A stretch of 64,000 nt of DNA from NCBI GenBank assembly GCA_963727525.1, contig CAVSGO010000008.1, positions 32,001 to 96,000 of the forward strand, in the 5' to 3' direction. The DNA is from an uncultured bacterium (lineage in GTDB: Bacteria; Krumholzibacteriota; Krumholzibacteriia; LZORAL124-64-63). The stretch's first letter is position 1, and the number at the start of each line of letters is the position of its first letter. The position numbers were made by a program, and so were the translations under genes. Of the stretch, positions 11,014 to 17,777 are shown in pieces. The notes beneath the pieces were generated by a model that had not been told where the DNA came from, made no database searches, and was given only the letters and a program-made list of their open reading frames with translations.

Positions 11014-11160
11014 TGAGAAAGTCGGGCCTAGCGGGAGAGATCTCGGTGCGAAGCCTCGTCAACATTCTTCTTGGCACAACGTTGGCGTTGCCGGGGCGTT
11101 GCGCGATCGCTACCATGGAGCCACCACGCGTTCACCCCGAGCAAGGCAGACGATTTCACG

Positions 11161-11901
11161 ATGGCACCCCGTCTTCCGCACGTATCCCTGGGCAAGCCGG
11201 CCGAGGCCGGCGACCTCATTCTCGAGCGACGCCACCGCCTCGTGATGGGGCAGGCGCCGAACCGAGGTGGCACGCTGCTCGACTTCGGCTGCGGCCAGGG
11301 GGCTCAAAGTCTGCTCTTTACGGACGACTTCGCGCGTATCGTCGGCGTCGATGTCGAGGCGGGCCACGTCGCGACGTTCCAGCGTACTCTCGCAGCACGA
11401 GGCCTCGAGGATCGGGTAGAGGTGCGCCACTATGATGGCAATCGCTTACCCCTGGACGATGCGAGCGTAGATGCGGTGGTGTCGTTCGAGGTGCTGGAGC
11501 ACGTGCAGGACGAGCAATTGGCACTGGCCGAGATACGGCGTGTCCTGAAGCCCGGAGGCTGGGTCGCGATATCGGTGCCGAATCGCTGGTGGATCTTCGA
11601 GACGCACGGTGCCCGCCTGCCGTTGCTTCCGTGGAATCGCGTGCCGTTCGTGAGCTGGTGGCCTCGCGCGATCCACGACCGCTGGGCGCGCGCGCGGATC
11701 TACCGCCGCCGCGATGTCTGCACGCTGCTTGGCGGCGCGGGCTTCACGATTCGCGAAAGCGCCTACATCACGGCGCCGATGGACGTGGTCAAGCAGCCGG
11801 TGCTGCGCGATGCCCTGCGCCGCACGCTCTTCCGCGGTGACGTCACGGCCGTTCCGTTCAAGGCCACGGCGGTGCTCGTCGTGGCGGAGAAGCCCGCCTG
11901 A
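11161..11901 (+). CDS. Class I SAM-dependent methyltransferase (type 11)
   Basis: LLDFGCGQG, VSFEVLEHV, RVLKPGG. Confidence 0.9.
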   Translation: MAPRLPHVSLGKPAEAGDLILERRHRLVMGQAPNRGGTLLDFGCGQGAQSLLFTDDFARIVGVDVEAGHVATFQRTLAARGLEDRVEVRHYDGNRLPLDDASVDAVVSFEVLEHVQDEQLALAEIRRVLKPGGWVAISVPNRWWIFETHGARLPLLPWNRVPFVSWWPRAIHDRWARARIYRRRDVCTLLGGAGFTIRESAYITAPMDVVKQPVLRDALRRTLFRGDVTAVPFKATAVLVVAEKPA

Positions 11902-11921: not shown

Positions 11922-11953
11922 AAAGGCCCCGCCAGGACCATGGCGGGACCTTC
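11922..11953. terminator. Hairpin between convergent genes
   Basis: aaggccccgcca-ggacca-tggcgggacctt. Confidence 0.6.
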
Positions 11954-11968: not shown

Positions 11969-13645
11969 TCACTTCGCCAGCACCACCTTCTGGACCGTGG
12001 TGCCGGCAGCGGTGCGTAGTACGGCGCAGTACACGCCCGCGGGGGCTGGGTGGCCGGTCGTGTCGCGGCCGTCCCAGGTGGCGGTGTGGGGGCCGGCCGC
12101 CAGCGCGGCGACCTGGAGCACGGCGATCGTGCGGCCGCGCAGGTCGACGATCGTCAGGTGCGCTGGTCCCGCGTCGGCCAGCGTGTAGCCCAGGGTCACG
12201 CGGGGGTTGAATGGGTTGGGCCAGGCGCCGGTGAGGCCGGTGACGGTGGGCACGCCGGCGTCGATTACCGGGGTCTGGCTGTCGGGGAGCTGGTAGCAGA
12301 GGGTGAGCAGGTCGTTCTGCGACGTGTACGAGTAGGCGTAGCCCGTCACCACCACCTCGCCGCCCGGCGTGATGGCGATGGCGGCCGGCTCGTCGCTCTG
12401 ACCCTCGCCATCGTAGCGGACGGCCCAGAGCGGAGCGCCGTCGGCAGGCGCGAAGCCCACGGTGGCGACGTCCCAGCCTGTATCCGTGCCGTCGCTGAAG
12501 CCGCTGGTGACGATGGTGCCGTCGGGGGCCTCGGCCAGCACGCCGGCCACGTCGTACCAGTTGGGCGGTCCCTGGTAGCCACCGGTCCACAGGGGATCAC
12601 CCGTGGCACCGTCGACCTTGAGCACGAAGTAGTCGCCGCCCGAGACGCCGCACACGAGCACGTTGCCGTCACGGTCGCGGACCATCTGCCGCGGGTCGTC
12701 CGCGGTGTTGCCGCTGGAATTCCAGCGTTGCGACCACGCGGTATGTCCGTCCGCCGACTCGTACCGGTGCAGCACGACGTCGTAGCCGGTGGTGCTGCTC
12801 CACGTGCGGCTGGCCATGACCACGTCGTCGTTGTCCATGAGCGCGAGCCAGCTCGTGCGCGCCTCGATGTTGTTGACGGCGCCGGGTTCCTGCTGCAACC
12901 AGAGCTGGGTGCCGTCGTCGCCGGCAAGCTTCGCCGTGACGAAGTCGGCCCCGCCGTCGGCAAGGCCGATGATGCCAGTGACCACGGGGTTGCCGTCGCT
13001 GCCCACCACGATGCTCAGACCGATGTCGTCGCAGACCTCGGCGCCGCCAATGGTCTGGCTCCAGAAGCAGTAGCCGCTGTCACCATGGTATTTCTGGACG
13101 ATGATGTCGTAGTAGCCGGTCGTGAAGGCGCGTCCCACCGTGAAGACGTTGCCCTCGCCGTCGACCGCCAGGTCGAAGATCGCTTCGTTGAATCCCTCAG
13201 GGCTGGCCCAGATCTCGCACCAGAGAACCTCTCCGGTGTCGCCGTGCAACTGGAGCACGGCGATATCGTCGCCATGGCCTCAGCCCACGCAGCCGCGCAC
13301 GTACCCGCCCACGAAGACGTCGCCTCGCGGCGAGATGGCCAGCTTCATCAGCGCCATGTCGTTGCCGCCGGGATCGCCCCAGCGCGCGCTCCACAGCTCG
13401 GAGTGGTCGACACCGGAGAGCTTGCGGACGAAGAGGTCGGACGCGCCATCGAGATCGGTGGATTCGCCGCCCACCAGGAGGTTGCCGTCGGGATCGACGA
13501 CCACCGCCGTGCCGACGTCGTTCTGCAGGAGTCCGCCGTCGTAGACGTCGGAAAACATCAGGCTCGGCTCGGCGGCCAGGGCCAGGCTCGCACCGAGCAC
13601 GAGCGGTAGCACCAGGCGGAGAGCTTTCCAGGCCGGTTCACGCAT
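11969..13645 (-). CDS. Secreted beta-propeller protein with C-terminal FlgD-Ig domain; in-frame TGA at 13280-13282 (candidate selenocysteine, CxxU)
   Basis: ORFs 13280..13723 and 11969..13258 share a frame and are joined as GYVRGCVG-TGA-GHGDDIAVLQL; signal peptide; propeller blades on both sides; PNPFNPR...WDGRD...GVY tail. Confidence 0.8.
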
Positions 13646-13793
13646 GAATTCCAGCTCCTTCGGGACAGGGAGGCATGGCGCATCCTGCCGATGCGCCCTC
13701 AAGACCGAGCGAGAAGGTATCATATTAGCACATCGAAGCGAAAAAGGGGAGACGCCAATGCGCGCGGTGTGTCCTGGCGCCCGCCGGCCCCTG

Positions 13794-14738
13794 CTAGGGC
13801 GAAACGGTGATCGTGGCGAATTCCACGCCGGACGCGTGCCAGTGATCGCGCACCTCCACGGCCACCTCGAATGTGCCCGGATGCTCGACGATGGTGTCCA
13901 GCGTGGCCACGCTCACCCAGGAAGTCCAGGGCGTGTCGACATCGCCGATGCGCCACCGTCGCGTCAGGGTGTCCATGTCGGCGTCATGGCTGGCCGAGCT
14001 GTCGAGGTGGAAGACCGACTGGATCGGTCCGGACGCCGGCGAGACTGACAGCGCGGCCACCGGGTCGTGGTTGGCGAGATAAGCCACGAGCTGGTAGCTC
14101 AGGCTCGGGGCCACGGTACCCGGTTCGGGATCGATGCCCGTCGCGTCCTGTACGCCGACCACGCGGTAGGCGGGCGGCGTGGCCGACGAATCCGCGCGCA
14201 CGTAGATGATCAACTGTCCCGTGCTCGCCGGATCCAGGGCGTAGCCGTCGCCGTGCAGGGTGACCGCCACGTCGAACTCGCCCTGCTGCGAATCCGGCCA
14301 TGGCGAGCCAGACGGCGCGTCTGCGAACGACCTCACCAGCGACCAGGCGGAGACCTCCACCGAGTCGACACCGGCCAGCGGCACGTTCCCGTAGGAGAAT
14401 TGCTCTCCCGAGAACAGGTGCGCGAGCGCACGGCGCAGCTCTTCCGGCGTGAGGGTCTCCACGGGCCAGCCCAGCCGCGCGCGGTCGCCGGGTTCCAGGA
14501 TCCAGGTGGCGTCGGCCGCGAGCACGGAGTCCATGGCCACCGTATCGCGCGTCCCCAGGGCGTCGCGCAGACCTTCGGCGGCGCCGAGAGGCGTCGACAG
14601 ATCGTAGACCACCGGGTCGGGTCCGGCGGGGCCGACCATATCGGCCCCGTGCTTGCGATCCTCGGCACAACCGATGGTCAGGACGATGAGGGCGAGGGGG
14701 ACCAGGAACAGGAACTGTCGTGCGTCGTGAGAGGTCAT
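13794..14738 (-). CDS. Lipoprotein with C-terminal PKD-like domain
   Basis: LTIGC lipobox; LDSSASHDAD..W..GD...PGTFEVAVEVRD. Confidence 0.65.
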   Translation of the reverse strand: MTSHDARQFLFLVPLALIVLTIGCAEDRKHGADMVGPAGPDPVVYDLSTPLGAAEGLRDALGTRDTVAMDSVLAADATWILEPGDRARLGWPVETLTPEELRRALAHLFSGEQFSYGNVPLAGVDSVEVSAWSLVRSFADAPSGSPWPDSQQGEFDVAVTLHGDGYALDPASTGQLIIYVRADSSATPPAYRVVGVQDATGIDPEPGTVAPSLSYQLVAYLANHDPVAALSVSPASGPIQSVFHLDSSASHDADMDTLTRRWRIGDVDTPWTSWVSVATLDTIVEHPGTFEVAVEVRDHWHASGVEFATITVSP

Positions 14739-15517
14739 GATCCCGCCTCGTTCGCGATGTAGCCGGGTGGTGGTTCGAAGAGCTTGGGCGACACCCGTCG
14801 CTCCTGGGCGGCGACCAGATCCGTCGTCGATCTCACCTGGCGGTGGAATACGTCGATGATCGTGGTGGCCCGCACAGGCAGACCCTGGACCTTGGCGAGC
14901 TCCGCCATGGCTGCGGCGCCCCCGGGCAGACCGACGAGCGTGGCGAAGGACGCCCTGCGCAGGAGCCCGAGATCGACTTTCAGATCGCGCGTGACCCACT
15001 GCTCCGTCGTCGTGGTGGCATCGCCCATCCGGATCTCGACGATGTAACGATGGCAGTGATAGCCGTTGATGGTCTCATCGTCGCCCGTGTCCACGACTCG
15101 CGCGGACACGCGCACCATCTCCGTGAGTTGCCTCGTGCGCGGGGTACGGGAATCGGTCGTGTCCGCCACGGCGGCGAGTTGCGAGAGCAGGTGGCTAGCC
15201 TCGTCGAACGTGAGGTTGAGATACGTGCGGTTCTTGCGGTCGAGCAACAGCACCGTGCCTGTATCGGCCCGCAGGACGAACGTCTGCTGGGGGCCTTCGC
15301 GGCGGACGCGATCGGCGGCCAGCCAGGTTTCCGTGGTGTCGGCATGGGCCGGAACATTCTGTCCAGGGAGCTGCGCGGCCTCGGTCCGGGTGACCTGAAT
15401 GAGGTGCATGGCCGGGATGCGCGCATCGCGACCGCAACCGCCTATGACGAACAATACGATCGCGCCAAACGCGACCAGAATCGTCCGAACGTATCGGAAC
15501 CAGCGGTGACTGGGCAT
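14735..15517 (-). CDS. DUF4412-like lipoprotein
   Basis: IGGC lipobox; ETINGYHCHRY..W, GLPVR, LFEPPPGY. Confidence 0.7.
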   Translation of the reverse strand: MPSHRWFRYVRTILVAFGAIVLFVIGGCGRDARIPAMHLIQVTRTEAAQLPGQNVPAHADTTETWLAADRVRREGPQQTFVLRADTGTVLLLDRKNRTYLNLTFDEASHLLSQLAAVADTTDSRTPRTRQLTEMVRVSARVVDTGDDETINGYHCHRYIVEIRMGDATTTTEQWVTRDLKVDLGLLRRASFATLVGLPGGAAAMAELAKVQGLPVRATTIIDVFHRQVRSTTDLVAAQERRVSPKLFEPPPGYIANEAGS

Positions 15518-15698
15518 GGTTCGACCTCGCTCGCGGTGTCCCGTACAGGATACGCAGGCAGGATACGTAGCATCAAGACGGAACACAAGCCGCGGCCTGG
15601 CTCCGCGCGAAGTCGGACTTGTCCCGGCGCGGGATTGGCTGTTTGATTGGCGGCGGCGCGAGACCGCGCCGTCGATCGACTCTGTCCGGGAGGATGTC

Positions 15699-17777
15699 AT
15701 GCGCTCGCGCCGGTTTCCGTTCGTCTTCACCGCCATGGTGGCCCTCACTCTCGGCACGGCCGTCACGCAAGCCGCGCCCGCGGCCGACGCGCCGCAGACC
15801 CTCACCATCACCGACTTCTTGCAGATCCCCACGCTGGGATCGGTCGCGGTGGCGCCGGACGGTCGTCGCGTGGCCTACGTCAAGACGTGGCGGGATCTGG
15901 AGGCCGACACATACCAGCACGAACTGTGGCTGGCGCAGGTCGCTTCGGGGGCGAAGCGGCAGATCACGTTCCAGGACAGCGAGATCGGGCATCTCGCCTG
16001 GCGCCCCGACGGAGCCCTGAGCTTCCTGCGCAACGTCGACGACAAGGCGCAGGTGTGGGTGAATCTCCTCGATGGTAGCGAGCCGCATCCGGTCACCGAT
16101 TTTCCGGAGGGTGTCGACAACTACTGGTGGTCGCCGTCCGGCACCTGGCTCGCGGTGGTTGCGAACGCGGTCGAGGACACGACCGGGCCAAAGAAGGACG
16201 ACCGCGCCGATTGGACGGTGTTCGATCGCCTCGAGCAGCCCGACACCTTCCCGCAGCTCTGGCTCGTGCCGGCGGGGCTCGCCGATCAGCCGCACGACGA
16301 CCGCGAGGCGCGACAGCTCTCCCGGCCGCCGTATCACGTGTACCACGCGGCCTGGTCGCCGGACGGGGCGCAGCTCGCCGTCACCTATAACCCGCGTTTC
16401 TCCAGCCTCGTCGACGAGGAACAGCACGTGGCCCTGGTGGACGTGCAGACCAACGAGTGGCGCGATATCAGCGATCCGCAGCGCCACGCGTCGTACGCGG
16501 TATGGTCGCCCGACGGGAAGCAGGTGGCGTACTTCACCGACCGCGAGCAGGACCTGCGTGCGTACCTGAACCTGAAGGACCTCGTGGTCTACGACCTCGC
16601 CAGCAGCGAGGAAACGACCCTCACCCCTCACCACCAGCTTGCGCTCGGCGGCACCGGGTCCACGCCGGAGTCGGCGCCGCTCTGGAGCGAAGACGGCCGC
16701 ACCATCACCGTGTCCGCGGCCCAGGGTACGGCGTACGATCTCTATGCGGTGGACGTCCGCGCCCGCAAGCTGGCTCCGATCACGCGACTCGCCGGCAATC
16801 TCGGCTCGTGGGACCTGCGCCGCGACACGCTCGCGTACGTCGAGAGTGCGCGGCACCTGCCGGGAAGCCTCTCCGTACGCGCCGCGGTTGGCGGTGAGGC
16901 CCGCGAGATCGACACGACCAATGACAGCGTGGCGCGTTTCCATCTGCTGCCGGCCCGCAAGCTCGCGCTCACGGGCAAGGATGGTCAGCCGATCGAGGGC
17001 TTCCTCTATCTGCCTCCCGGTGCGGGCGACCGCGATCACCTACCGGGCGTCATCGAGATGCACGGTGGGCCCTACTTCCGCTACGGCAACGCCTGGACCA
17101 CGCGGTACCCGTGGCAAGTGCTGTCGCAGGCCGGCTTCGCGGTGTTCATCGTCAATCCGCGCGGCGGCACGGGCTATGGGCAGGACTTCCTGCGTGGCGT
17201 GTACCGCAACTTCGGCACCGACGACTACCTCGATATCATGGCCGCCGTCGACACGCTCGTGGCCCGCGGCACCGTGGACGGCGATCACCTGGGGTTCACG
17301 GGCTACAGCTATGGGGGGCTGATGACCGATGTCGTGATCAGCCGCACCGACCGCTTCAAGTGCGCCGTCTCCATCGCCGGCATCTTCGACTTCGTGTCGG
17401 CCATGGGCGAGAGCAATCCGCAGCTCTTCATCGATAGCTACGCGCAACCCTGGTCGCACGATCTGCAGCGGATGTGGGAGCACAGTCCGGTGTCGCGCGC
17501 CGCTTCGTTCGTCACGCCCACGCTGGTCATGCATGGCCTTGCCGACGAGCCCGTGGATCCGCGACAGTCCATCGAGATGTTCAGCTACCTGCAGCTCAAC
17601 GGCGTGCCCAGTCGCCTCGTGCTGTATCCTGATGAGGGGCACGGCATCAACCGGCCAAGCCACATGCTCGATTACGAGACGCGCGAACTGCAGTGGTTCC
17701 AGCACTATTTGCTGGGTGACGAGAACGCGGCGGGAGCCAAGCCTCCCGTGCCCGTGGAACCCGAACCGGGGCGGTGA
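15699..17777 (+). CDS. S9 family peptidase (acylaminoacyl/dipeptidyl peptidase), secreted
   Basis: Signal peptide; WSPDG propeller repeats; HGGP, GYSYGG, D-EPV, EGHG. Confidence 0.93.
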   Translation: MRSRRFPFVFTAMVALTLGTAVTQAAPAADAPQTLTITDFLQIPTLGSVAVAPDGRRVAYVKTWRDLEADTYQHELWLAQVASGAKRQITFQDSEIGHLAWRPDGALSFLRNVDDKAQVWVNLLDGSEPHPVTDFPEGVDNYWWSPSGTWLAVVANAVEDTTGPKKDDRADWTVFDRLEQPDTFPQLWLVPAGLADQPHDDREARQLSRPPYHVYHAAWSPDGAQLAVTYNPRFSSLVDEEQHVALVDVQTNEWRDISDPQRHASYAVWSPDGKQVAYFTDREQDLRAYLNLKDLVVYDLASSEETTLTPHHQLALGGTGSTPESAPLWSEDGRTITVSAAQGTAYDLYAVDVRARKLAPITRLAGNLGSWDLRRDTLAYVESARHLPGSLSVRAAVGGEAREIDTTNDSVARFHLLPARKLALTGKDGQPIEGFLYLPPGAGDRDHLPGVIEMHGGPYFRYGNAWTTRYPWQVLSQAGFAVFIVNPRGGTGYGQDFLRGVYRNFGTDDYLDIMAAVDTLVARGTVDGDHLGFTGYSYGGLMTDVVISRTDRFKCAVSIAGIFDFVSAMGESNPQLFIDSYAQPWSHDLQRMWEHSPVSRAASFVTPTLVMHGLADEPVDPRQSIEMFSYLQLNGVPSRLVLYPDEGHGINRPSHMLDYETRELQWFQHYLLGDENAAGAKPPVPVEPEPGR

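Follow-up and report, generated by a model that had tools for sequence, protein, structure and literature searches.

The closest described counterparts of the site reported here are the CxxU selenoproteins (GrdA, HdrA, and the SelW-like and AhpD-like proteins; PMC13188914), which carry a single Sec two residues past a conserved Cys and are decoded by SelB with a coding-region stem-loop directly past the UGA. The gene that we describe appears to share all of these features. However, the known CxxU selenoproteins are thioredoxin-like or AhpD-like, whereas the present protein is a predicted exported propeller with a T9SS-type tail; furthermore, no Cys homologues of it were found, some of its family members carry CxxxU, and its SECIS-like RNA lies outside the consensus range. 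Searches of Pfam and NCBIfam gave no thioredoxin-family match, and the motif sits in a strand-strand loop rather than at the N-terminus of a helix.

Sec has likewise been described in non-thioredoxin envelope proteins of anaerobes, namely the TonB-dependent receptor with an FCYXU motif (NF049945), the GSU2204/MtrB-PioB barrel and ExtKL (PMC13188914). These families, like the present one, are known from computational evidence only, and they do have Cys homologues (for the TonB-dependent receptor, see PMC12013277, Table 3); no relation to the propeller in sequence or fold, and no NCBIfam match, was found. The relatives of the propeller itself are the SBBP propellers (PF06739; for example LipL53 of Leptospira, NF047494), with which it shares the repeat signature at a PF06739 score above the cut-off, and its neighbours in structure are CylK, BamB, the PQQ alcohol dehydrogenases and tetrathionate hydrolase. 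None of these has the G-C-x-G-U-G-H loop that concerns us here, and the loop is also absent from the best 150 SBBP relatives in a search of 1.84 billion representatives. The likeness to BamB and the PQQ-dependent dehydrogenases is at the level of fold only (TM 0.41-0.50, 11-17% identity), and no Pfam PQQ model reaches E 0.1.

A propeller, SBBP or FlgD entry is missing from the 119 selenoprotein families in Table 1 of a 2026 review (PMC13188914), a comparison confined to that table. The terms propeller, SBBP, FlgD and PQQ do not occur in PMC13188914, PMC12013277 or PMC13326102, and no selenoprotein model of NCBIfam release 20 matches the protein. The statement in the initial annotation that no selenoprotein family was known with this architecture thus agrees with both Table 1 and NCBIfam. 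Given a Sec reading that is strongly supported, the exported propeller would be a selenoprotein family absent from these current lists.

The gene lies on the minus strand of the window, that is, the whole stretch of 64,000 nucleotides analysed, and occupies positions 11969..13645. From the ATG at 13643-13645, which is preceded at a distance of 9 nt by a Shine-Dalgarno-like AGGAG (13655..13659, minus strand), a single frame runs to a terminal TGA at 11969-11971 and is open throughout save for one TGA at 13280-13282 (minus strand), which corresponds to residue 122 and which we take as Sec122. The codon of its partner, Cys119, is a TGC at 13289..13291 (minus strand), in an alignment column that is invariant. 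Calling of ORFs with translation table 11 cuts the gene into two, 13280..13723 (147 aa) and 11969..13258 (429 aa, with a GTG start). It had been proposed from the letters alone that these two ORFs are one frame broken by a single TGA; translation bears this out, with the exact context GGYVRG-C-V-G-[TGA]-GHGDDIAVLQL and a product of 558 aa on readthrough, and the gene's own copy is complete, spanning residues 1-558 with one TGA. Beyond the stop codon, at 18 nt, a GC-rich 10-bp hairpin followed by UUUCU (11925..11950, minus strand) is possibly a terminator held in common with the convergent methyltransferase gene. A scan for promoters and terminators returned no sites of either kind, the hairpin at 11925..11950 failing the T-run rule of that scan. 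No RNA sequencing runs containing the gene are listed, and the DNA runs that do contain it carry small shares (0.08-0.15).

The predicted product starts with a Sec-type signal peptide, continues as an eight-bladed SBBP/PQQ-like propeller and ends in a FlgD-Ig/T9SS-type sorting domain. The segment from residue 1 to about residue 24 (MREPAWKALRLVLPLVLGASLALA; 13574..13645, minus strand) reads as a signal peptide; the N-terminus, MREPAWKALRLVLPLVLGASLALAA, is typical of one, residues 3-23 are modelled as a helix, and each of the 17 aligned orthologues has a hydrophobic N-terminus. The propeller spans residues about 27-452 (12290..13567, minus strand). It scores 40.2 bits with Pfam SBBP (PF06739), for which the cut-off is 20.5, so that it belongs to the family by gathering score as well as by its predicted propeller fold. 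In the AlphaFold model (pLDDT 83.2, pTM 0.74) there are 32 strands, making eight blades of four that continue without a break across the TGA. The best Foldseek match is CylK (7roo; E 9e-19, TM 0.53), with further matches to BamB and PQQ dehydrogenases, and sequence identity with solved structures is low, at 11-22%. The tail, residues about 473-558 (11972..12229, minus strand), matches PDB structures of FlgD and scores 36.6 bits with Pfam FlgD_ig against a cut-off of 27. Hence the signal peptide upstream, the FlgD-Ig tail downstream and the blade pattern running on past the stop, all of which the initial annotation had read from the sequence, were each recovered.

With regard to export, the tail scores 22.1 bits with the type A sorting domain model TIGR04183, just below its cut-off of 23, and Pfam Por_Secre_tail gives E 0.06, with the related FlgD_ig above cut-off. 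The genome itself contains T9SS genes (SprA, 480 bits summed against a cut-off of 200; PorU, 436.5 bits against 420), and yields 151 matches to the propeller protein, nearly all of them to the C-terminal tail alone. From the succession of signal peptide, propeller and FlgD-Ig/T9SS-type tail, export by the T9SS is therefore probable, and the protein most likely crosses the outer membrane by type IX secretion and is then displayed at the surface or released.

The evidence that carries the Sec reading is the conservation of the TGA. Exactly one in-frame TGA is present in all 18 full-length copies, which come from 17 of the 41 genomes of the class (own genome included), and the relatives' copies are only 37-48% identical to the protein. 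The 17 aligned copies have one U each and no other stop, and the U falls in a single column. Furthermore, a search of 185,579 species genomes confirmed 47 loci, for which the titles that give a name are mostly Krumholzibacteriia, and the TGA stands at the site in 47/47, as it does in one tandem second copy. A Cys always precedes it by 2-3 residues in these loci (C-x(2-3)-U), some members having CxxxU (GCGTGU) instead of CxxU. Within the protein, conservation is highest at the motif, with G118, C119, G121, U122, G125, D126 and D127 invariant among the aligned orthologues. No sense codon occurs at the Sec column in 65 copies. A fixed TGA column of this kind is, judged from the alignments, far beyond chance. 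The initial annotation had named Trp, Arg or Gly at this position, or a base-call error, as outcomes that would speak against it; the former did not occur, neither in the 18 class copies nor in the 47 further loci, and the latter is ruled out because the same error cannot have arisen independently in about 50 assemblies.

Two other ways of reading the UGA have to be weighed against this conservation. One is that it simply terminates, giving a 121-residue secreted peptide and a reinitiated 429-residue protein devoid of a signal peptide, or that the gene is a decaying pseudogene. This is how gene callers annotate the locus, and public protein sets contain only C-terminal fragments that start past the TGA. 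However, a nonsense mutation would not persist at one column through about 50 assemblies at 37-48% identity, both sides of the TGA are under purifying selection, and the break would fall, according to the model, inside blade 2 of a single propeller. Nor is a restart codon conserved, since the GTG at 13258 that the ORF caller used as a start is GTC in 13 of the 16 Val codons at that site, and the C-terminal product would be left with no signal peptide, which T9SS cargo needs. Termination is accordingly very improbable. The other reading, that Trp, Cys or Gly is inserted by near-cognate suppression or through a reassigned code, has in its favour that plain readthrough would keep the frame open too. 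Against it, TGA is the terminal stop of 5 of the 17 copies, namely this gene and four orthologues, and so still functions as a stop in the host; the genome is 67% G+C and encodes a dedicated tRNA-Sec alongside the complete machinery; and the GGU-loop hairpin past the codon resembles that of the genome's Prx-like gene. A sense codon would also have been simpler to evolve, yet none was seen. We regard insertion of a standard amino acid as scarcely credible. The reading of the UGA at 13280-13282 as selenocysteine is, by comparison of the sequences, strongly supported.

The machinery for decoding is in place. The tRNA-Sec was detected both by aragorn and by RF01852 (70.4 bits, cut-off 47), and SelA (462 bits), SelB (302 bits) and SelD (365 bits) are all above their curated cut-offs; the absence of such machinery, which the initial annotation had raised as a further objection, is thus not what the genome shows. 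SelA is above its cut-off in 40/41 class genomes, among them every one of the 17 with the propeller gene, and for this reason co-occurrence of propeller and Sec machinery is uninformative. The whole explanation, in which one exported propeller of 558 residues is produced with its UGA decoded as Sec by the host SelA, SelB, SelD and tRNA-Sec, is in our judgement highly probable.

Other selenoprotein genes of the same genome offer points of comparison. The SelD gene itself contains a TGA, with a GGA loop 20 nt past it, and in a Prx-like gene a GGUC loop lies 17 nt past the UGA. The Prx-like gene and a Trx-like gene were picked by eye from a genome-wide GC3 scan for in-frame TGAs, the 451 candidates of which were mostly antisense artefacts. 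An exported UxxC thioredoxin-TPR selenoprotein (G000:C6:185918-187102) resembles the propeller protein in having a signal peptide and a conserved in-frame TGA, and in being split by gene callers, but it has a thioredoxin fold and UxxC and the propeller protein has neither. Among its relatives' copies, 20/23 have one or two in-frame TGAs and 3/23 apparently have none. It was considered as a dedicated reductant or partner of the propeller and rejected, because the two do not co-occur (it is found in 7/17 class genomes with the propeller and in 16/24 without).

Nearly all selenoproteins have Cys homologues (PMC13188914, section 6; PMC12013277), and a homologue check for CxxC and CxxU forms, as the initial annotation had suggested, gave a divided answer: the TGA forms were there throughout, and Cys forms were not found. 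A search of 5.8 billion clustered proteins with region 40-230 gave eight matches, none of them a Cys form; three were post-TGA fragments (P0002-P0004) and five were distant propellers that do not have the motif. A Cys-coded pattern was not found in the 185,579 species genomes. Of 84,973 matches to residues 1-230 among 1.84 billion representatives, the motif was in none of the best 150, which were long multi-repeat SBBP proteins of 648-6014 aa; being swamped by such proteins, this profile search says little about Cys orthologues. In metagenome contigs, the pattern C-x-G-C-G-H-G-D-D, which represents the commonest motif only, gave 61 DNA matches, none of them related. Related genomes contain two paralogues, 29% identical, whose loop has no Cys and no Sec. 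That no Cys homologue was found in these searches counts against the Sec reading; a Cys counterpart is the criterion used by SECIS-independent searches, and is typical rather than obligatory.

The RNA immediately 3' of the UGA can form two hairpins. Hairpin 1 (13239..13263, minus strand) has a 9-bp stem and a 7-nt loop, UCCAGUU, and begins 16 nt past the UGA; hairpin 2 (13218..13238, minus strand) has a 9-bp stem closed by a GGU triloop at 13227-13229. Both are supported by folding and covariation. Over 50 distinct sequences of the two-hairpin region, 89.4% of cells pair, compared with 33-59% in slid registers, and both-sided changes are seen at nine pairs, values that were reached by none of 500 shuffles; covariation of both hairpins was also seen in the 17-sequence set. 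The two hairpins differ in what is conserved. Hairpin 1 has the most compensatory changes, at 5/9 pairs of its stem (GC to AU at one pair in 11/50), and its loop is variable, with 14 different loop sequences among the 50. In hairpin 2, 98% of cells are paired, a compensatory change from GC to CG occurs, and the loop is GGU in 46/50, the remaining four retaining G-U. The codon involved is GTT in 16/16 Val at the site, as against 71/813 (8.7%) of Val codons elsewhere.

A textbook bacterial SECIS had been expected here, and this expectation failed, as the downstream RNA departs from the published model both in the spacing of hairpin 2 and in the loop of hairpin 1. The published bSECIS consensus places the loop 16-37 nt from the UGA (Zhang and Gladyshev, in PMC13188914, section 5). 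Hairpin 2 conforms to the rules for loop, stem and energy in 50/50 (MFE -9.6 to -14.4 kcal/mol), but its loop is 49-50 nt from the UGA. Hairpin 1 has a loop spacing of 22-27 nt, inside the consensus range in 50/50, and agrees with all four rules in 28/50. In the window's own gene no element fits the consensus fully, hairpin 1 having no G at loop positions 1 and 2, and an Rfam search of 13100-13400 gave chance-level matches only (best E 0.32). Hairpin 2 resembles the canonical bacterial SECIS in its 9-bp stem, in a 3-nt loop that opens with G-G-U and in its energy, and differs from it in its spacing and in the second covarying hairpin that lies in between.

One proposal is that the two-hairpin RNA as a whole directs recoding, with hairpin 2 as the apical element bound by SelB through its GGU loop, G-G-U loops being typical of SelB sites. 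Hairpin 1 would then be a spacer which, by folding out 25 nt, leaves an effective distance of 25 nt between the UGA and the loop of hairpin 2. There may be precedent for spacing bridged by structure, as an E. coli SECIS has reportedly been placed in a 3'-UTR. On this proposal the chances seem to us evenly balanced. Alternatively, hairpin 1 alone could be the recoding signal, an ordinary bacterial SECIS with relaxed loop rules lying 24-27 nt past the UGA, and hairpin 2 would be kept for ribosome pausing, for mRNA stability or by a strict codon or peptide constraint on TGEVLW. The in-range spacing of hairpin 1 in every sequence, its full agreement with the rules in just over half of them and its wealth of compensatory changes are all consistent with this. 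So too are the loops 17-20 nt past the UGA in the genome's other selenoprotein genes, which indicate that the host SelB works at canonical spacing. However, hairpin 1 lacks a conserved loop and 22/50 sequences, that of the gene itself included, break one or more of the four rules, while the GGU of hairpin 2 is held by a codon otherwise rare for Val, which is the pattern expected of a loop recognized by protein. A signal in hairpin 1 alone is thus possible rather than probable.

Turning to the protein, Cys119 and Sec122 are predicted to lie in a short insertion, the loop G-C-x-G-U-G-H, which joins strands 2 and 3 of blade 2. The AlphaFold model places the motif between two beta-strands at residues 118-124, so the suggestion of a Sec in a loop of an exported propeller is supported as far as the loop is concerned, and its export is the part that we infer. 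Propellers usually bind ligands on one particular face, and from the order of the strands the loop would appear to be on that face. The Cys119-Sec122 pair may be proposed as the functional centre of the protein, and the two chemistries that we consider, redox and chelation, are drawn only from the spacing of the two residues. That the pair is a redox pair, forming a reversible selenenylsulfide, is plausible without quite being probable.

The pair could instead be a binding site for soft metals or chalcogens, capturing, for instance, Hg, Cu, Cd, As or sulfide/selenide on the outside of the cell, with no catalytic redox role. Several predicted bacterial selenoproteins with C/U pairs are metal-related, such as those of mercuric transport (C/SxxU) and the metal-binding UxxU and CU proteins (PMC13188914, Table 1). 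The His at +2 is mostly conserved (14/17), Asp is invariant at +4 and at +5, the site would be extracellular where there is no obvious thiol reductant, and the exported Trx-TPR selenoprotein does not keep company with the propeller. On the other hand, some orthologues have Q, A, E or S in place of the His, both Asp belong to the general SBBP repeat pattern, since they are present in other blades as well, and no metal-handling gene is found among conserved neighbours. We think a metal or chalcogen site rather unlikely.

Genomic context gives no function, because the family has no conserved neighbour: in all-against-all clustering, the best cluster of flanking ORFs is present at 15/64 loci. The neighbours in the window, a methyltransferase (11071-11901, plus strand), a PKD-domain ORF (13794-14999, minus strand), a DUF4412 gene and an S9 peptidase, seem unrelated. 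In one subclade, the propeller gene adjoins a gene for a CbcL-like multiheme cytochrome c/cytochrome b quinol oxidase, a possible sign of a link with extracellular electron transfer. An ORF of about 223 aa between the two genes in that subclade was set aside as it looks like a wrong-frame call, with no Pfam match and an odd composition.

In summary, what we tentatively put forward, as a possibility that is on balance somewhat improbable in its entirety, is an obligate selenoprotein family with no Cys counterpart at all: a T9SS-exported propeller of anaerobic Krumholzibacteriia, with a Cys-x-x-Sec surface loop for redox or chalcogen/metal handling, whose mRNA would carry a new class of SECIS, a SelB-binding GGU hairpin that lies 50 nt past the UGA and is put into register by a spacer hairpin that covaries. 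Searches for bacterial selenoproteins rely either on a SECIS model or on Sec/Cys pairs. A new SECIS class together with the lack of a Cys form would explain how the family was missed by both kinds of search; it appears to escape them, in that no Cys homologues were found and the best SelB-like hairpin lies beyond the spacing of the model, and this points to a blind spot in selenoproteome surveys. Public annotations cut the propeller genes in two, and a correction is due. If the two-hairpin arrangement functions in the way proposed, the rules for the position of a bacterial SECIS would be wider than at present, with a bearing on gene prediction and on recombinant Sec engineering. The family would also add to the 119 listed ones a fold, the beta-propeller, and a probable location, extracellular as cargo of type IX secretion. 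Finally, a selenol at the surface of an anaerobe would be chemically unusual, and could point to a new extracellular activity in redox or in the handling of metals or chalcogens.

We consider it very likely that the propeller gene is a genuine selenoprotein gene. It occupies 11969-13645 on the reverse strand as a single frame, from an ATG at 13645 to a terminal TGA at 11969-11971, and its translation meets only one internal stop, a TGA at 13280-13282 (residue 122) in the context GGYVRG-C-V-G-TGA-GHGDDIAVLQL. A table-11 ORF listing breaks this frame in two, 13280..13723 (147 aa) and 11969..13258 (429 aa, GTG start). The sequence reads AGGAG 9 nt upstream of the ATG and a typical signal peptide at the N-terminus, and Pfam finds both SBBP (40.2 bits; cut-off 20.5) and FlgD_ig (36.6 bits; cut-off 27). 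The initial annotation, which had described one frame with a single TGA in a CVG-TGA-GHGDD context, a signal peptide and a FlgD-Ig tail, was right in every detail. The decoding mechanism would be the one already known from bacteria, and CxxU is a common motif.

The TGA is conserved throughout the family. Searched in six frames, the class sample (41 genomes, the window's own among them) yielded 18 matches over the full length, spread over 17 genomes (E 0 to 5.5e-101); relatives' copies are 37-48% identical to the query, and all 18 have exactly one in-frame TGA. Orthologues occur in families f1 (13/24) and f5 (3/3) and were not found by this search in f2 (0/4), f3 (0/2), f4 (0/3), f6 (0/3) or f7 (0/1); the remaining matches are confined to the C-terminal tail, except for two paralogues (29% identical) whose frames contain no stop. 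In an alignment of 17 of the genes, from which the second of the tandem copies was omitted, every sequence contains one U and no further stop, and all the U residues share a single column. Conservation along the protein peaks around this column, where the consensus reads G-[YFH]-[IV]-x-G-C-x-G-U-[GSD]-[HQA]-G-D-D-[IV]-x-V-x-K-[LV]-D-x-x-[TS]-G-[EQ]-[VL]-[LV]-W. Family f5 and a tandem pair have CxxxU instead of CxxU (GCGTGU, GCGGTU); the tandem genes (L056:3343 and L056:5080, from the same genome as loci L035 and L053) both carry the TGA and are both CxxxU (GCGGTU, GCGTU-type).

A scan of 185,579 species, one genome each, gave 47 confirmed propeller loci, all 47 with TGA at the site; 42 came from the first pattern, L064, L075, L093 and L096 from reading, and L092 from a looser pattern. 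As the TGA recurs at this site in all copies, a sequencing (base-call) error or a recent nonsense mutation is excluded as its source. The record titles of the loci are Candidatus Krumholzibacteriia/Krumholzibacteriota, 'uncultured Fibrobacteraceae', Latescibacterota (one) or 'bacterium'. The Fibrobacteraceae and Latescibacterota titles (L054, L065, L068-L070, L074, L075, L083, L089, L090, L097 and L100) may be mis-assigned, the other carrier loci being titled Krumholzibacteriia. TGA still functions as a stop in the carriers, because it terminates 5 of the 17 propeller genes, including the window's own; the G+C content of this genome is 67%.

The genome also holds the machinery to decode selenocysteine. 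A tRNA-SeC(tca) at C7:1642602-1642699 was found by aragorn and scores 70.4 bits against RF01852 (cut-off 47), and SelA (462 bits), SelB (302 bits) and SelD (365 bits) are all present. The SelD gene, outside the window at G000:C8:225636-226547 (locus L018), itself has one in-frame TGA (AGU-AAK), with a 5-bp stem bearing a GGA loop 20 nt downstream. Every genome carrying the propeller gene can decode selenocysteine; since SelA is above cut-off in 40 of the 41 class genomes (the sole miss being 88% complete), this co-occurrence has no discriminating power. Two further TGA genes were seen in the same genome. One, picked by eye in a crude scan, is peroxiredoxin-like (FTFVUPTE; C7 around 1882232; L102:358-1272, minus strand) and has a textbook hairpin whose GGUC loop lies 17 nt downstream of the UGA. 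The other encodes an exported 395-aa thioredoxin-TPR protein with the motif WUPSC (C6:185918-187102; L101:619-1803, plus strand), which has homologues in 23 of the 41 genomes sampled from the class. A single in-frame TGA is present in 19 of the 23 listed copies from relatives, and two are present in a further copy; the last three lack it, so that cysteine forms seem to exist for this family, unlike the propeller family. This protein was rejected as a dedicated partner of the propeller protein on comparison of the class genomes.

Folding places two adjacent hairpins 3' of the UGA in every orthologue. On the reverse strand of the window, hairpin 1 (13263-13239; 9-bp stem, loop UCCAGUU) starts 16 nt after the UGA and is followed by hairpin 2 (13238-13218; 9-bp stem, GGU loop at 13229-13227), and RNAalifold yields the same two helices. 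Across 17 sequences, 92.2% of cells are paired and 7 of 18 pairs show changes on both sides; across 50 distinct sequences, 89.4% are paired (98.2% in helix 2) and nine pairs show double changes, such as GC to AU in helix 1 (11/50) and GC to CG in helix 2 (3/50). None of 500 shuffles reached any of five measures in the smaller set or the observed values in the larger, figures that overstate the case because the sequences are related; the slid registers, which pair 34-58% and 33-59% respectively, and the compensatory changes are independent of kinship. Synonymous sites point the same way. Where the hairpin 2 loop encodes valine, it does so with GTT in all 16 sequences (the 17th has leucine, TTG, with a compensated stem), a codon that makes up 71 of 813 valine codons (8.7%) elsewhere in these genes, and the adjoining ACC, GAG and CTC codons are also invariant.

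Which hairpin serves as the SECIS can be weighed against the published bacterial rules (PMC13188914) for loop, stem, energy and a loop 16-37 nt from the UGA. That hairpin 1 is itself the SECIS is possible but somewhat doubtful: it satisfies all the rules in 28 of 50 sequences, the window's gene not among them, and has 14 different loops. Hairpin 2 fits the rules for loop, stem and energy in all 50 sequences (loops GGU in 46, AGUUG in three and GUU in one) and lies 49-50 nt from the UGA. We give about an even chance to a model in which hairpin 2 would be the element recognised by SelB and hairpin 1 a structural spacer. With the 25 nt of hairpin 1 folded out, the path from UGA to GGU would comprise 16 nt plus the 9-bp stem, an effective distance of 25 nt, inside the range that the rules allow. 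A precedent is reportedly the E. coli experiment of Su, Li and Gladyshev (2005) with a SECIS in the 3'-UTR.

The missing cysteine form counts formally against the selenocysteine reading, and our searches covered the commonest motif best. Scoring on residues 40-230, a collection of 5.8 billion clustered proteins gave eight matches and no cysteine form: five are generic propellers (26-33% identity) without the motif, and three are fragments of the C-terminal part, their gene calls starting right after the TGA. These three public records (P0002, the window's own; P0003, 81% identical; P0004, 67%) open at a Met or Val just past the TGA (423-429 aa) and are left without the signal peptide and the first one and a half blades. 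A cysteine-coded pattern, one of two used in the 185,579 species genomes, found no cysteine locus, all confirmed loci being TGA. A profile search of 1.84 billion representatives is dominated by long SBBP repeat proteins, and the motif is absent from the best 150 listed; the degenerate DNA pattern C-x-G-C-G-H-G-D-D gave 61 matches in 241 million metagenome records, none related to the 17 orthologues (tblastn, E <= 1e-3). In two distant paralogues from related genomes, the loop contains neither cysteine nor selenocysteine. Confinement of the family to a class with near-universal selenocysteine use would explain the missing form.

An AlphaFold2 model built on the 17-sequence alignment (pLDDT 83.2, pTM 0.74) has a helix at 3-23, 32 strands forming eight four-stranded blades (residues 28-452), a low-confidence linker (456-479) and an all-beta C-terminal domain. 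The loop joining strands 110-117 and 125-133 consists of residues 118-124 (G-C-V-G-U-G-H), and we take these two strands to be the second and third of blade 2 by the PQQ/SBBP repeat register; on that register, the loop would lie on the face of the blade-to-blade connecting loops. The best Foldseek match in the PDB is the CylK propeller (7roo, E 9e-19, TM 0.53), followed by BamB, PQQ/lanthanide alcohol dehydrogenases and tetrathionate hydrolase (11-22% identity); by sequence, the PDB gave FlgD alone, matching only the tail. No NCBIfam model scored above cut-off; TIGR04183 (T9SS type A sorting domain) reached 22.1 against 23. The genome has SprA (480 bits summed) and PorU (436.5 bits), and 151 matches to the protein within it are nearly all to the FlgD-Ig/T9SS-like C-terminal domain alone. 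The protein is thus most probably a T9SS cargo, one among roughly 150, and the T9SS secretome appears very large.

Gene context says little on function. No flanking gene is common to the whole family (best cluster 15/64 loci), and the window neighbours look unrelated: a convergent methyltransferase (11071-11901, forward strand), an S9 peptidase and, upstream on the reverse strand, a PKD-domain ORF (13794-14999; 22.9 bits, below cut-off) and a DUF4412 ORF (14735-15832), of which at least one start is wrong because they overlap by 265 nt. Between the propeller and methyltransferase genes, a 10-bp GC-rich hairpin with a short U tract (11925-11950) may be a bidirectional terminator; it failed a consensus terminator scan. 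In one subclade, the propeller gene is preceded on its own strand by a gene for a fusion of about 670 aa, which joins a multiheme cytochrome c (11 CXXCH) to a cytochrome b561/HydC-type membrane domain; in locus L071 the two genes are about 1 kb apart. This architecture presumably resembles Geobacter CbcL. The fusion is upstream in 16 of 64 loci (L071:30-2039, L069:57-2069 and L097:183-2144, all plus strand, and 13 more), or 10 of the 37 whose upstream flank reaches 2.4 kb or more; some genomes are represented twice among the loci. An AT-rich gap of about 270 nt before the propeller gene makes co-transcription doubtful in L071. Two homologues in the window's genome lie on another contig (C6 near 108-111 kb and 329-332 kb), and we regard the cytochrome neighbour as a lead, not evidence. 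As the functional centre we commit to a Cys119/Sec122 pair exposed at the surface. That it works as a reversible selenenylsulfide redox site has, in our estimate, slightly less than an even chance; a soft-metal or chalcogen ligand is less likely, and something else takes the rest.

The initial annotation knew of no selenoprotein family with such an architecture, and the literature agrees as far as it was covered: the family is absent from the 119 families and subfamilies in Table 1 of PMC13188914. The terms 'propeller', 'SBBP', 'FlgD' and 'PQQ' are absent from the main texts of that paper, deep-Sep (PMC12013277) and BSepDB (PMC13326102). Full-text searches linked no selenoprotein to SBBP and, going by titles and the starts of abstracts, gave no bacterial propeller selenoprotein in work on selenoproteins, beta-propellers and SECIS, only unrelated bioreactor ecogenomics for Krumholzibacteri with selenocysteine, and only unrelated hydrothermal-plume genomes for selenocysteine with type IX secretion. 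The family is probably previously undescribed. It would be a selenoprotein family new among selenoproteins in both fold and location, with no cysteine form found, a SECIS-like element outside the consensus, and genes that public records mis-annotate.
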